A stretch of DNA of 5,985 nucleotides from the IMG/VR virus record IMGVR_UViG_2693429582_000012. One strand, written 5' to 3'. The position numbers and the translations under genes were made by a program. The notes beneath the pieces are model-generated. The model had not been told where the DNA came from, did no database searches, and was given only the letters and a program-made list of their open reading frames with translations. Origin of the DNA: a virus (taxonomy: Duplodnaviria > Heunggongvirae > Uroviricota > Caudoviricetes). How positions within the stretch are numbered: the stretch's first letter is position 1; every line of letters starts with the position of its first letter. Below, in pieces: positions 47 to 5,881 of this stretch.

Positions 47-472
47 TTAGTGCATCACCACAGCATTCCCTGCCGGGCCGCCGCGATTCATCTGGTCATA
101 CAAAACAACCGCTGACGCAACAAAATCATCGACATCCTTCACCAGCCGATCCCTCCGTTCGACGATCTCACGGTAATATTCAGAACTGTGACTGCGCATA
201 CGGGCCACCAGCAAAGGCGGCATCGCCTTTTCGATCGCCGGTAACAGCGCCTGAATTTTTTCAACCGCATCAGGCGTATCCTTCTCCACCCAGCGGAAAA
301 TTTTCTGGGTATTACGGGCCAGGGCTTCCGGATGGCTGTCGTCGTACAGTTCCGGGAACGTCATCCCAAGTTCGAAATAAGTCCGGGCTATTTCAGCTGC
401 AGGCACTTTCTCACCATCAGGATATGCCCAGGCATTCATCGCCATGCGGATGTGTTCATGTTTGATTTTCAT
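47..472 (-). CDS. ydaT: YdaT-like (cII-like) prophage protein, 141 aa
   Basis: Complete ORF beginning MKIKHEHI and ending VVMH, which I recall as characteristic of E. coli Rac YdaT. GGAG lies 7 nt upstream of the ATG (minus 483..480). Its start overlaps the upstream Cro-like gene by 17 nt, indicating an operon. Family assignment is from memory, not a search. Confidence 0.75.
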   Translation of the reverse strand: MKIKHEHIRMAMNAWAYPDGEKVPAAEIARTYFELGMTFPELYDDSHPEALARNTQKIFRWVEKDTPDAVEKIQALLPAIEKAMPPLLVARMRSHSSEYYREIVERRDRLVKDVDDFVASAVVLYDQMNRGGPAGNAVVMH

Positions 473-731
473 GAATCAACTCCGGTGTATTTTGTGTGTT
501 AGCCTTATCTCCAGCAGGCAACCCGTCGGTTGGATTCGGATATAAATCTGGTCGCAATTCATGAGGAGTCACCCCAGTTGCAATATAAATTTGACGAACC
601 CGCTCCCCTGTCGGCACTCGACCATTGTATTCATTTGCCCATTTGTGTATTTGAGACGGCCAAGCCCCTATTGCACGCCCTAGCGGACGAATACCACCAG
701 CAATCTTTATTGCCTTGTCCAATGCTGTCAT
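456..731 (-). CDS. ydaS: Cro-like HTH DNA-binding protein, YdaS family, 91 aa
   Basis: ORF with GGAGG (minus 740..736) 4 nt upstream of ATG 731..729. The translation has a Cro/YdaS-like helix-turn-helix segment (LGRAIGAWPSQIHKW) and the HELRPDLYP motif I recall from YdaS-family proteins. It is divergent from the repressor gene. Confidence 0.8.
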   Translation of the reverse strand: MTALDKAIKIAGGIRPLGRAIGAWPSQIHKWANEYNGRVPTGERVRQIYIATGVTPHELRPDLYPNPTDGLPAGDKANTQNTPELIHENQT

Positions 732-833: not shown

Positions 834-1223
834 ATGGACATGAGAAAAAAGCAATACGACACCCCGCTGGCAGAAAGGTTAGATACGATCTCGCAACAGC
901 ATCATTTAAGCGGTTCAGATTTAGCGCGCATCGCTGGTGTAGGACGCTCATCAGTCAACGCCTGGAAAAAAAGAGGGACAATCAGTAAAGATTCCGCAGC
1001 CAAAATTGCAGAAGCGACAAATGTTTCCCTTTCCTGGCTACTGACAGGAAAAGAAGATACAAACAGAGAGGCGCTTGATGATGATGAGAAAGCCCTGCTT
1101 GATGTTTACAGAAACCTGCCACCTGTAGAGCGTAGAAATATGCTGGCAGCTTTTCAAATGCGCCTTCAAAAACTGACCGAATTTTACTCAGAATACGTTG
1201 ACCCAATAACGCGACAAAAATAA
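834..1223 (+). CDS. Prophage repressor, XRE/CI-type HTH (RacR/DicA-like), 129 aa
   Basis: ORF with an N-terminal HTH (LSGSDLARIAGVGRSSVNAWKKRG). The C-terminal stretch LLDVYRNLPPVERRNMLAAFQMRL resembles, from memory, the C-terminal region of E. coli DicA-type short repressors. It is divergent from the cro-like gene and followed by an intrinsic terminator. An alternative start at ATG 840 is possible. Confidence 0.85.
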   Translation: MDMRKKQYDTPLAERLDTISQQHHLSGSDLARIAGVGRSSVNAWKKRGTISKDSAAKIAEATNVSLSWLLTGKEDTNREALDDDEKALLDVYRNLPPVERRNMLAAFQMRLQKLTEFYSEYVDPITRQK

Positions 1224-1288: not shown

Positions 1289-1317
1289 TTGACATATGTT
1301 CATCTTAAGAGAACAAT
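1289..1317 (+). promoter_or_regulatory. Predicted rightward early promoter (PL-like) with embedded operator
   Basis: -35 TTGACA (1289..1294), 17-nt spacer, -10 AACAAT (1312..1317). This is the same architecture and nearly the same sequence as the leftward promoter at 759..787. Confidence 0.5.
1297..1315. promoter_or_regulatory. Putative operator: palindrome TGTTC-N9-GAACA (TGTTCATCTTAAGAGAACA)
   Basis: Second copy of the 19-bp palindrome, overlapping the spacer and -10 of the predicted early promoter. Confidence 0.5.
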
Positions 1318-1391: not shown

Positions 1392-1544
1392 ATGGATACG
1401 CTCAATCTTGGCAACAACGAATCTCTGGTATGTGGCGTGTTCCCCAACCAGGACGGTACGTTCACCGCGATGACGTATACCAAAAGCAAAACGTTTAAAA
1501 CTGAAGCTGGCGCGCGTCGCTGGTTAGCCAGAAACACTGACTGA
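1392..1544 (+). CDS. Small prophage protein, 50 aa (possibly YdaF/DUF1391-like)
   Basis: GAGG (1383..1386) 5 nt upstream of ATG 1392. The longer ORF from 1296 would start inside the predicted promoter and has no RBS, so the internal start is preferred. The YdaF-like assignment is a tentative recollection. Confidence 0.55.
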   Translation: MDTLNLGNNESLVCGVFPNQDGTFTAMTYTKSKTFKTEAGARRWLARNTD

Positions 1545-2194: not shown

Positions 2195-2404
2195 TTATAA
2201 GGAAACACCAGCAGGGCCGCGGCGACCAACAGAACGATTAAAATCAATAATGCCATTATAAAGGACATTATTTAATTTATCGTCGAATGCTGATTCTGTG
2301 AGCCTCAACTCTGAATGAGTTTTTAATAACCCTGATTGCCTGAGTTGATTTACCAGGCATTCAATCTGTTTTTCAATAAGCGGATTTCTTTTTTTGTTTG
2401 GCAT
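2195..2404 (-). CDS. Hypothetical protein, 69 aa, convergent with the 216-aa gene
   Basis: GGAGG (minus 2414..2410) 5 nt upstream of ATG 2404..2402, preferred over the upstream ATG at 2416 which has no RBS. AT-rich, no family recognised. Confidence 0.5.
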   Translation of the reverse strand: MPNKKRNPLIEKQIECLVNQLRQSGLLKTHSELRLTESAFDDKLNNVLYNGIIDFNRSVGRRGPAGVSL

Positions 2405-2755
2405 TTTATCCTCCATTGAGGTTCTGGGTTAAAAATGGAGACCAACACGCTGTCACGTGTGGTCGTGCGCCGGACACGGATAAGAATCCGGTACTGACAG
2501 TTTACTGAAAGGATATTTCCCTGAAAAGTCAGGGCATAACGCGAAAGCGTACGGCGAAGCTCTTTCCCTTAGAAGGCTTGTCGTTAGATTTCTTCGAACG
2601 TGCGCTTCCGGTTGTGGCACTCCGCGAAATGGCGCGGCGGTAAGTATGGCGGGGTTATTCCTTCCCCTTGAGGACACCGGGTTGTCAGGTTGACCATACG
2701 CTTAAGTGACAACCCCGCTGCAACGCCCTCTGTTATCAATTTTCTGGTGACGTTT

Positions 2756-2798
2756 GGCGGTATCAGTTTTACTCCGTGGCTGCTCTGCCGCCCTTTTT
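2756..2798 (+). terminator. Possible intrinsic terminator-like element
   Basis: GGCGG (2756..2760) and CAG (2764..2766) pair with CTG (2785..2787) and CCGCC (2788..2792), with a 3-nt bulge and an 18-nt loop, followed by T5 (2794..2798). The stem is imperfect, so this is weak. Confidence 0.3.
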
Positions 2799-2802
2799 AA
2801 AG

Positions 2803-2950
2803 TGAATTTTGTGATGCGGTGAATGCGGCTAAGCGCACGCGGAACAGTTAAAACCAAAAACAGTGTTATGGGTGGATTCTCTGTATCCGGCGTTAATTGT
2901 TAACTGGTTAACGTCACCTGGAGGCACCAGGTACCGCATCACAAAATTCA
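2803..2950. repeat. 18-bp perfect inverted repeat pair flanking 112 bp
   Basis: 2803..2820 TGAATTTTGTGATGCGGT is the exact reverse complement of 2933..2950 ACCGCATCACAAAATTCA, checked base by base. Confidence 0.85.
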
Positions 2951-2967
2951 TTGTTGAGGACGCGATA

Positions 2968-3156
2968 ATGGAAACGTTATTACCAAACGTTAATACGTCT
3001 GAAGGTTGTTTTGATATTGGTGTTCTGCTCAGTAACCGGGAGTTTACTGAAGATGCCATTAATATGAGAAAATATGAGCCTTATCTGCTCAATGATAATT
3101 CCATACTTTCCCGAATTGCTCTTCTTGAACTTGGTATTTTCGGAGAACGTCAATGA
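2968..3156 (+). CDS. Small hypothetical protein, 62 aa
   Basis: GAGGA (2956..2960) 7 nt upstream of ATG 2968. The longer frame from GTG 2863 has no RBS and would run through the inverted-repeat region. Confidence 0.55.
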   Translation: METLLPNVNTSEGCFDIGVLLSNREFTEDAINMRKYEPYLLNDNSILSRIALLELGIFGERQ

Positions 3157-3344
3157 CTTCAGCATTTGCACTGATGATGACGGTTTTTCTTATAACGGGT
3201 GAATCACAGAATGTGATTACCGGAATTTATGCCAGTAAAGAATCCTGCCTCCAGGCAAGAGACGAGCAAAAAATTTCTGGTGAATGCCTCCCGGTAAAAA
3301 AAAAAGTATCGCTGTACCTGAATAACGAAACACCGGCTGGATAA
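3153..3344 (+). CDS. Small hypothetical protein, 63 aa, with N-terminal hydrophobic segment
   Basis: ATG 3153 overlaps the upstream stop (ATGA), with GGAG (3142..3145) 7 nt upstream. The N-terminus MTSAFALMMTVFLITG is hydrophobic, suggesting a signal or membrane anchor; two Cys residues follow. Confidence 0.55.
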   Translation: MTSAFALMMTVFLITGESQNVITGIYASKESCLQARDEQKISGECLPVKKKVSLYLNNETPAG

Positions 3345-3436: not shown

Positions 3437-5881
3437 ATGAGCACTGATAAAGAAGAATTTGCGCTATATTGCGAAGCAAAAAATGACAAAGTCAGAAAAC
3501 GTCTGGGAATTAAAGGTGGTTTTTACTGGACTACAGCAAAAAAATTATCTGTTGCCATCTCCCGCTGCATTACCGCAATGGATGACAACGATTATGATGA
3601 AGACGACTTTAAAAAACCCGTTCGCGTCCATTTACCCGTTGTGAATGACCTTCCACCTGAAGGCGTGTTTGATACCGAATTCTGCAACCGATACGAAAAA
3701 GGCGGGGAAGATGGCATTACAATGGTATTTATCGCGCCCTCTCCCTCCGTGCAGGAGAAACCAGCCAGTACTGACAATACCAACGTCAACAGCGAAGACA
3801 TGACGGAGATTGAGGAGAATATGCTCCTGCCGGTTTCTGGTCAGGAGCTGCCCATTCGCTGGCTTGCGCAACACGGCAGCGAAAAACCAGTAACGCACGT
3901 TGCACGGGAAGAACTTCAGGCATTACATATAGCACGGGCGGAAGAACTGCCTGCTGTTACTGCCCTGGCCATTTCTCACAAAACAAAGCTGCTCGACCCG
4001 CTGGAGATTCGCGACCTTCACAAACTGGTACGCGACACAGACAAAGTTTTCCCTAATCCCGTTAATTCCAGTCTGGGGTTAATGACTGCTTTTTTCGAAG
4101 CATACCTGGACGCTGACTATACCGATCGAGGTCTGCTGACAAAAGAGTGGATGAAAGGAAATCGTGTTTTACGCATCAGCCGCACGCCATCCGGCGCTAA
4201 TGCTGGCGGAGGAATTCTTACCGATCGCGGTGAAGGTTTTGTCCACGATAATGCGTCAGTGGAACGTGACGTTGCCGCTGGCGTTCTGGCCCGTTCAATG
4301 GACATCGATATTTACAATCCACATCCGGCACACGCCAAACGCATTGAAGAAATCGTTTCAGAGAATAAGCCGCCCTTTTCTGTTTTTCGTGACAAATTCA
4401 TCGCCATGCCTGGTCACCTGGATTATTCCCGCGCGATAGTGGTTGCGTCCGTGAAAGAAGCACCAATTGGTATCGAGGCTACTCCCCACCGTGTTACCGA
4501 ATATCTGAACAAAGTACTGACCGAAACCGACCATGCCAACCCTGATCCAGAAATCGTGGATATTGCCTGCGGTCGCTCCTCTGCTCCAATGCCGCAGCGT
4601 GTAACAAAAGAAGGAAAACAGGATGATGAAGAAAAACCGCAGCCATCTGGCGCAATGGCAGATGAACAGGCAACGACTGAAGCAGTGGAACCGGATACAA
4701 CTGAACATAATCAGGACACGCAGTCGATGGATGCTCAGCCACAGATAAATTCTGTTGATGCGAAATATCAGAAACTGCGGGCAGAACTCCATGAAGCCCG
4801 GAAAAACATTCCGCCCCAAAATCCTGTCGATGCAGACAAATTACTGGCTGCCTCTCGCGGAGAATTTGTTGAAGGGATTAGCGACCCGAATGATCCGAAA
4901 TGGATTAAGGGGATCCAGACCCGCGATTCTGTGTACCAGAATCAGCCAGAAACGGAACAGAACGACCAGAAAGCGGAACAGAACAGCCCAAATACGCAAC
5001 AAAACGAGCCAGAAACGAAACAACCTGAACCAGTAGTGCAACAGGAACCGGAAAAGATCTGCACCGCCTGCGGTCAGAGGAGTGGCGGCAACTGCCCTGA
5101 TTGTGGCGCGGTGATGGGCGACGCAACATACCAGGAAACATTCGATGACAAGAACCTGGTTGAAGTTCAGGAAGACGATTCGGAGAAAATGGAAGGCGCT
5201 GAACATCCACACAAGGAGAATGCTGGCAGCGCTCAGGACCACGCCAGCGATAGTGAAACTGGCGAGACAGCAGATCCCTTAATTACGGTGAACGGTCATC
5301 GCATTATCACATCCACCCGCAGGTTGTGGCACCATCTGATGATTGACCTTGAAACAATGGGCAAAAATCCTGACGCACCAATAGCCTCAATAGGCGCTGT
5401 ATTTTTCGATCCACAAACCGGAGAGCAGGGGCCTGAATTCAGCAAAATAATTGATATGGGTACATGTGGCGGCACTGTAGACATAAGCACCATCGAATGG
5501 TGGCTTCAACGCTCTGGCGAAGCCCGTGCCGCCATTTTAGCTGATCGAATACCGCTTGATGATGCGCTTTTACAATTACGGGAATTTATAGACGAAAACT
5601 CCGGTGAATTTTTTGTCCAGGTCTGGGGAAATGGAGCCAACTTCGACAACACGATTTTGCGCCGTTCATACGAACGGCAGGGGATCCCCTGCCCGTGGCG
5701 TTGCTACAACGATCGCGATGTACGCACAATCGTTGAGCTGGGGAAAGCCATAGACTTCGATGCCAGAACTGCTATCCCATTCGAAGGTGAGCGCCATAAT
5801 GCACTTGATGACGCCCGTTACCAGGCAAAATACGTTTCAGTTATCTGGCAAAAACTGATCCCGAATCAGGCTGATTTTTAA
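3437..5881 (+). CDS. recE: RecE-like recombination exonuclease, 814 aa: RecE-type N-terminal region fused to a C-terminal DEDDh 3'-5' exonuclease domain
   Basis: GAGG 7 nt upstream of ATG 3437. Long stretches (for example [42 protein letters not shown] and [17 protein letters not shown]) match my recollection of E. coli Rac RecE (exonuclease VIII) N-terminal sequence. The last ~190 aa instead carry DnaQ-like motifs: LMIDLETMG (D637, E639), NFDNTIL (D737), [13 protein letters not shown] (H787, D792). Confidence 0.9.

Follow-up and report, generated by a model that had tools for sequence, protein, structure and literature searches.

What fills some 550 bases without genes inside an otherwise tightly packed phage operon, and is it one element or several? 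The window analysed here (the whole stretch of DNA, 5985 bases) represents the dicBF operon from a Qin-like lambdoid prophage of E. coli. The block in question is the long untranslated region of that operon; it yields DicF, a small RNA that inhibits cell division, and as such is already known rather than new. DicF and its precursor have been known since 1989-1990 and were restudied in 2016-2023; DicF is among the first bacterial small RNAs. A preliminary description made from the letters alone had proposed a structured RNA, an interpretation that is supported here, and had not recognised the well-studied locus. The genes of the window are arranged as follows:

456-731, minus strand, and 834-1223, plus strand: divergent Cro/CI-type pair, the dicC-like and dicA-like immunity genes
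1289-1317, plus strand: predicted dicBp-like promoter, a strong promoter-like site
1392-1544, plus strand: ydfA (DUF1391)
1556-2194: gene for 212 aa (phrog_2151), function unassigned
2195-2416, minus strand, convergent: gene for 69/73 aa (phrog_4274), function unassigned
2417-2967: non-coding block
2968-3156, plus strand: dicB coding sequence (Pfam DicB PF05358, E = 6e-37; annotated as dicB by RefSeq in identical genomes)
3153-3344: DUF1482 gene (ydfD)
3437-5881: RecE-like gene, 814 aa

The locus is widespread. A megablast search with positions 2380-3000 matches 4734 of 5426 complete E. coli genomes, with at least 80% query coverage in 3329 of the 5426 and at least 99% identity in 330 records; dicB is annotated adjacent among the matches listed. 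Temperate phages such as Tritos also match, and there the annotation of the same interval is "DicF antisense sRNA", with dicB next to it. Over positions 2464-3000, the window is collinear with the ydfC-dicF-dicB region of K-12 and with phage Tritos, at 94% identity; this collinearity begins only at about 2464. In the cryptic Qin prophage of K-12, a stretch of 340 nt without genes separates ydfC from dicF.

The dicBF operon of K-12 Qin shares with the window the dicC/dicA pair, the promoter, ydfA, an untranslated region with dicF, dicB, ydfD, and a recE-like gene, and also the same terminator and the same long helices. It differs in having ydfB and ydfC where the window has the 212-aa (phrog_2151) and the convergent 69-aa (phrog_4274) genes, so that transcription from dicBp must cross an opposing gene in the window before it reaches dicF. 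No convincing promoter was found for this minus-strand gene (2195-2416). The recE-like gene is intact in the window (814 aa), whereas K-12 carries the IS-disrupted pseudogene ydfE. The 814-aa protein has an N-terminal Exonuc_VIII domain (residues 57-189) and a C-terminal Rv2179c-like 3'-5' exoribonuclease (DEDD) domain (residues 632-804, E = 5e-64); no further nuclease domain was matched in it. At 1245-1260, directly 3' of the dicA-like gene and before the dicBp-like promoter, is a perfect hairpin that resembles a bidirectional terminator (ACCGCCGGAAGGCGGT and then T8).

The block had been described beforehand as non-coding and G+C-rich, and both properties hold, with a G+C content of 0.52-0.55 at 2501-2800 against 0.38-0.44 in the flanks. 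Its 551-nt plus strand folds at -204.6 kcal/mol, compared with -176.5 +/- 7.5 kcal/mol for dinucleotide shuffles (z = -3.75; none of 100 shuffles as good). The minus strand is equally exceptional (z = -4.0), so folding energy alone cannot tell the strand of the RNA. The plus strand is indicated by the match to DicF, by the T-run, and by the many G-U pairs in the conserved helices; such pairs are frequent in helix P1 of the domain that we call module A and would be A-C mismatches on the minus strand.

The preliminary description had also treated the block as a single element. The structured character stands, but the unity does not: a sensitive BLAST search against phages resolves the block into a mosaic of a 47-nt junction and four modules (L, A, DicF, and B), each of which occurs independently in other phages. 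Its features are as follows:

2417-2463: prophage-variant-specific junction between the 69/73-aa gene and the start of homology to K-12 Qin
2464-2616, plus strand: module L, an upstream leader with two small hairpins (2469-2492, 2519-2534) and one long, interrupted hairpin (2535-2616) whose tip varies
2608-2611 (about 2609), plus strand: putative RNase III cut, 5' end of the 190-nt form of DicF, placed from +813 and the predicted start to within +/-3 nt
2611-2724, plus strand: module A, a conserved four-way-junction RNA domain that forms the 5' body (two-thirds) of the 190-nt form
2740/2741, plus strand: probable RNase E site, 5' end of the 53-nt DicF, in the single-stranded A/U-rich sequence AUCAAU/UUUCUGG (cut at the slash), assigned from the K-12 annotation
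2741-2793, plus strand: DicF, with its terminator hairpin at 2756-2792 and a U-tract at 2794-2798 (TTTTT)
2799-2955, plus strand: module B, an STnc100-like structured RNA with an outer 20-bp stem (2801-2820 with 2933-2952)
2825-2829 with 2835-2840, 2889-2898 with 2906-2915, and 2916-2921 with 2927-2932: inner hairpins of module B, which also has a variable insert
2956-2960, plus strand: ribosome-binding site GAGGA of dicB, beginning 4 nt after the outer stem of module B
2453-2677, 2584-2739, and 2702-2857, minus strand: open reading frames of 51-76 aa within the block

The individual structures picked out beforehand are all present and fall into these modules. The hairpin CCCTGA/TCAGGG (2519-2534) belongs to module L, and the hairpin CCGCG/CGCGG (2622-2637) and the 9-bp stem GGGTTGTCA/TGACAACCC (2679-2687 with 2707-2715) belong to module A. 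The terminator-like stem with its T-run (2756-2798) is the terminator of DicF itself, and the inverted repeat given as 2803..2950 is the outer stem of module B, perfect over 18 nt and extended to 20 bp. The junction at 2417-2463 contains no open reading frame, no Rfam match, and no plus-strand promoter.

The covariance-model scan that had been suggested as a check identifies DicF without ambiguity. Rfam family RF00039 matches positions 2742-2793 of the window with 75.0 bits, compared with a gathering threshold of 48, over the full model (1-52 of 52; E = 9.5e-16). The 53-nt dicF annotation of K-12 corresponds to 2741-2793, where 52 of the 53 bases are identical; a comparison that covered the pairing regions 5' and 3' gave as the sole difference an A-to-G exchange at 2779, in the terminator hairpin. 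A terminator scan also found the Rho-independent terminator. The surroundings of the gene are those of a dicBF-type operon, with the DicA/DicC-type immunity region on its upstream side and dicB on its downstream side. Weak Rfam matches elsewhere in the window (mir-43_2 and IS009) were dismissed as chance-level.

The processed forms of DicF are known from K-12. The 5' end of the 53-nt form is generated by RNase E and its 3' end by the terminator, with a published dependence on RNase E (PMC10448788), whereas a 72-nt form has a 3' end that is produced by RNase III from the full-length mRNA. For a 190-nt form, RNase III is required to generate the 5' end, which is located between +813 and +814 of the dicBp transcript; the same study found no internal promoter, and K-12 yields both terminated and read-through transcripts (PMC10448788). 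Secondary sources differ slightly on the RNase III end, and the 5' end of the 190-nt form and the 3' end of the 72-nt form are mutually compatible.

These published sizes can be projected onto the helices of the block. The predicted promoter of K-12 (TTGACC-17-TAATCT) places the start near position 1938 of the K-12 locus (L001), and +813 consequently falls at about 2750 of that locus, which is position 2609 or so of the window. This point lies 185-190 nt before the 3' end of DicF, at the base of the 3' arm of hairpin 2535-2616. Likewise, counting 71 nt from 2741 gives 2812, so that the end of the 72-nt form falls in the middle of the 5' arm of stem 2801-2820/2933-2952; both cut positions were calculated from the lengths of the RNAs and from a predicted start of transcription, and do not represent ends mapped in the sequence of the window. 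Since the published sizes place both cuts inside them, the two longest helices of the block are probable RNase III substrates. We infer that the RNase III cuts published for K-12 map to hairpin 2535-2616, which is likely to be the substrate that gives the 190-nt form its 5' end, and to stem 2801-2820/2933-2952.

The long hairpin of module L is composed, in the minimum-free-energy fold, of the helices CATAAC/GTTGTG, AAGCGTACG/CGTGCGCTT, and CGAAG/CTTCG. It is predicted in 13 of 14 diverged copies that retain this stretch, with a different tip, and the sequence of the tip in the window also differs from that of K-12. The small hairpin at 2519-2534 (UCCCUGAAAAGUCAGGG) pairs as CCCUGA/UCAGGG around an AAAG loop and shows a C-G to U-A exchange in other copies. 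Module L as a whole (2464-2616) recurs in phage PhiR5_2. The same small hairpin contains a nine-base string, CCCUGAAAA, that also occurs in boxB of lambda nutR, with a different pairing register; immediately 5' of module A, some copies have the boxA-like sequence GUGCUCUUC. There is no N gene in the window, and these resemblances to boxB and boxA near module A are probably coincidental.

We consider it highly probable that the block is transcribed rightward, as the untranslated region of dicBF, from a DicA-repressed dicBp and cut into the forms of DicF. A polycistronic RNA would start at the predicted promoter (1289-1317) and then be processed. Cleavage by RNase III at about 2609, in hairpin 2535-2616, together with termination at 2756-2798 would yield the 190-nt form, and cleavage by RNase E at 2740/2741 would release the 53-nt DicF, an Hfq-dependent small RNA that represses ftsZ, xylR, pykA, and manX. 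Polymerases that read through the DicF terminator would continue into dicB. In the read-through RNA, cleavage by RNase III in the 20-bp stem 2801-2820/2933-2952 would produce the 72-nt form and, by the same cut, may leave a dicB mRNA with its 5' end just upstream of the ribosome-binding site. The heavy structure may also protect the untranslated 550 nt against Rho. In this scheme, the present analysis shows that the RNA is DicF, that the block is homologous to the K-12 locus, and that the helices are present and conserved; the dependence on nucleases and the sizes of the RNAs are published results on K-12.

The early-left transcript of phage lambda offers a parallel, with RNase III sites in the hairpin of the N leader and in sib. 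These sites resemble the block in placing a long helix in a lambdoid early-left operon beside the ribosome-binding site of a small gene with a regulatory or toxic role, but are not known to be similar to it in sequence.

Module B, the spacer between dicF and dicB, resembles the STnc100 family (RF02076), a multicopy prophage-borne RNA family related to the PasD small RNAs of pathogenic E. coli prophages. The Rfam model aligns over its full length with 34.0 bits (E = 1e-4), compared with a gathering threshold of 47, and 11 other loci have a sub-threshold match of 28-44 bits in the corresponding place. In an independent consensus fold, computed from 18 diverged spacers, the outer stem reappears together with three inner hairpins; compensatory changes affect 7 of the 44 pairs. 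STnc100 and PasD share this architecture, in which a long-range outer stem surrounds several hairpins, one of them a conserved CCUGGAGGCACCAGG hairpin. Membership in STnc100 was rejected because every copy scores below the gathering threshold, and module B is therefore regarded as a diverged relative. Published copies of STnc100 sit elsewhere in prophages, for example downstream of stx2, whereas module B is a spacer within an operon, ahead of dicB, kil, or tciA.

Indeed, module B (approximately 2799-2955) recurs before kil in Rac-like and Stx phages and before tciA/terB in P1, P7, and D6. In the loci scanned with Rfam, the order is constant: a DicF-like match, a sub-threshold match to STnc100, and a small toxic gene. 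The STnc100-like core (model positions 31-147) lies immediately upstream of tciA/terB in P1 (3842-3961 of locus L004), P7 (2501-2616 of L005), and D6 (1501-1621 of L012), and the same leader-type RNA precedes dicB, kil, tciA/terB, and an open reading frame beginning MLNVAIE in different phages. The product of tciA is annotated, by homology only, as a possible cell-division inhibitor.

Neither a protein-coding nor a DNA-level role accounts well for the block. The minus-strand open reading frames, for which some GenBank phage records call hypothetical proteins, would be the candidates for one or more small proteins, and the preliminary description had already set two of them aside as shadow frames. 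This judgement is borne out: the three are not considered genes because they have no Pfam or PHROG match and are broken by single-base indels between homologues that are 94% identical. RefSeq has no annotation at this place, either in K-12 or in the identical genomes, and the variation tracks base-pairing instead of codon structure. Protein coding was ruled out on the absent family matches and the frame-breaking indels, and its probability is next to negligible. The proposal of "an RNA gene or a recombination or regulatory element" stands in its RNA-gene and regulatory parts, given that Rfam identifies DicF; the recombination element found no support. A perfect inverted repeat of 18-20 bp, in a modular mosaic region that suggests frequent recombination nearby, could act as DNA, be it as a recombination site, a replication origin, or an operator for a binding protein. 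However, G-U pairs and compensatory changes are tolerated in the stems, and these maintain pairing in RNA but not the symmetry of the DNA sequence; in the copies linked to kil, a bulge and an A-to-G change in the 3' arm of the 20-bp stem keep RNA pairing only. Moreover, the published RNA ends map inside these stems. A function of the repeats as DNA is thus very improbable, and compensatory changes, which the preliminary description had named as a further check, are seen in stems across the homologous loci, in keeping with a structured RNA.

The part of the block for which no name exists is module A. No Rfam family matches it at E <= 1 in a scan of the window, and the papers on DicF that were examined contain no account of it. 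Its predicted structure comprises four helices and a pseudoknot:

2611-2617 with 2718-2724: P1, GTTGTGG with CYRCAAC
2622-2626 with 2633-2637: P2, CCGCG with CGCGG
2651-2654 with 2664-2667: P3, variable in sequence (GGGG/CCCC, CTGGG/CCCAG, CAGGTG/CACCTG)
2679-2687 with 2707-2715: P4, GGGTTGTCA with TGACAACCC, closing a near-invariant 19-nt loop
2644-2649 with 2694-2699: predicted pseudoknot, GTATGG with CCATAC in the P4 loop

Other copies exchange both partners: P4 reads GGGTAACCA with TGGTTACCC in Izhakiella, and the pseudoknot reads GCATGG with CCATGC in phage P1. In a model-fitted alignment of 31 distinct copies, which is biased toward the structure by construction, 12 of 31 pairs show two-sided changes, compared with 4.5 +/- 1.4 in shuffles (0 of 500), and 95.6% of the cells are paired, compared with at most 57% when the partners are slid. 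A MAFFT-only alignment of 28 sequences, which does not have this bias, gives 7 pairs with two-sided changes against 2.0 +/- 1.2 in shuffles (again 0 of 500). For P3, the GGGG/CCCC stem was preferred over a pairing of its loop (UCCUU) with a downstream GAGGA, because the latter appears only in a single-sequence fold and is not kept by copies that lack GAGGA. Judged by sequence comparison, module A is a well-supported and widely distributed structured RNA without a family entry.

The RNase III cut placed at about 2609 lies one or two bases 5' of P1, so the published 190-nt RNA would consist of module A followed by DicF. Since GUUGUG (2611-2616) also forms the base of the RNase III hairpin, P1 could, as far as the sequence allows, form only when this hairpin is open or cut.

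Module A extends far beyond the dicBF operon. A scan with an exact pattern of its loop finds at least 120 viral contigs and 21 genome contigs from Escherichia, Shigella, Citrobacter, Trabulsiella, Pseudescherichia, Erwinia, and Izhakiella. Copies that are near-identical to those of E. coli were also encountered in metagenome-assembled genomes labelled Hyphomicrobiales, Bacillota, Veillonella, Collinsella, and 'Proteobacteria' (L139, L148, L149, L152, and L154); these bins of unrelated phyla most likely contain mis-binned contigs of enterobacterial prophages. In a sensitive BLAST search, the module (2611-2732) recurs in phage cdtI, Stx2c phages, Salmonella phage F1055, phage pPE4, P1, and P7.

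What follows module A varies, except that an intrinsic terminator (hairpin and T-run) is located 40-90 nt 3' of it in all 99 distinct copies, among which linker and terminator fall into at least eight sequence classes. In P1 and P7, the module lies just downstream of the C1-controlled Pban and overlaps the interval labelled "dicF-like region" in the P1 record (AF234172, 68791-68892); in P1 it begins some 15-20 nt into the predicted Pban transcript, and the tRNA, tci, and ban genes follow downstream. These copies are 78-83% identical to the window over 2622-2717, are followed by an intrinsic terminator, and, like the window, are associated with an STnc100-like core, in their case ahead of tciA/terB. 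The P1 tail differs from that of the window in lacking the seed and the terminator sequence of DicF, and the Rfam model of DicF does not match it at E <= 0.05 in a scan of these loci. In cdtI, module A is found in the leader behind a PL-like promoter (11 of 12 positions matched) and ahead of the first open reading frame. The cdtI locus (1495-1765 of L006) and others (including L007, L027, and L040) combine module A with a DicF-shaped terminator hairpin and a different single-stranded tail, which the DicF model likewise does not match at E <= 0.05 in that scan; after the tail, a 15-bp inverted repeat, ACAAAACAGAGAAGA/TCTTCTCTGTTTTGT, takes the place of the STnc100-like stem.

Module A is combined with small-RNA tails that are interchangeable, and an STnc100-like spacer, ahead of different division-inhibitor genes, follows further downstream. 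The unit of evolution appears to be a constant structured domain with a variable tail and a terminator, and the existence of at least eight tail classes suggests that there may be a family of uncharacterised DicF-like small RNAs with other targets. That module A constitutes a distinct, unnamed RNA family of Enterobacterales prophages and phage P1 with interchangeable tails, of which DicF is one, always placed before a terminator and possibly with a function of its own, is a tentative proposal that we put at somewhat below even chances. Candidate functions may include the control of read-through into toxic genes, the processing or stability of DicF-like small RNAs, and the binding of a host factor.

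The first of these functions would make module A a cis-acting leader that also decides on termination at the downstream terminator, in the manner of a riboswitch, an attenuator, or the put sites of phage HK022; DicF-type RNAs would then be the terminated product, and expression of dicB, kil, or ban the product of read-through. The succession of a pseudoknotted multi-helix domain and a terminator in 99 of 99 copies, despite at least eight classes of linker and terminator, is consistent with such a leader, as are the early positions of the module in P1 (after Pban) and in cdtI (behind the PL-like promoter), the presence of both terminated and read-through transcripts in K-12 (PMC10448788), and a fold of module A with covariation support. 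However, the covariance model of module A misses putL and putR, taken from the HK022 genome, even at E <= 10 with filters off. Both put and module A are structured RNAs of phage early operons that precede terminators, with no N gene in the stretch examined, but put has approximately 70 nt and two stems, whereas module A has approximately 115 nt, four helices, and a pseudoknot, and there is no detectable homology. The shared strings GCGCGGCGG and CAGG-TGA are suggestive, but homology to put was rejected because the model finds nothing at the put sites.

Nor was a conserved alternative pairing between module A and the terminator found. The sequence GGCGGTA of module A could pair with the CCGCC-type terminators present in most classes but absent from terminators of the P1 type; this pairing was suggested by a single-sequence fold, and covariation is uninformative because the side in module A is invariant. 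No ligand or protein partner is indicated, the domain lies approximately 1.3 kb from the promoter in Qin-type loci, and the same conservation is accounted for by a simple role in processing or stability. Because of the missing match to put and the missing conserved pairing with the terminator, control of termination by module A is a minority hypothesis, which we regard as unlikely; a role in processing or stability, or in the protection of the long untranslated RNA from Rho, is equally compatible with the observations.

Calling a structured RNA from the sequence alone was a true positive on a textbook case, and the analysis adds nothing new on DicF itself. It does sharpen the anatomy of the locus: each of the two published RNase III cuts can be attributed to a particular conserved helix, and the untranslated region of the dicBF operon is seen to consist of portable RNA modules in series. 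Should termination or processing be under the control of module A, this would help to explain how prophages adjust the amounts of their toxic products DicF, DicB, and Kil.
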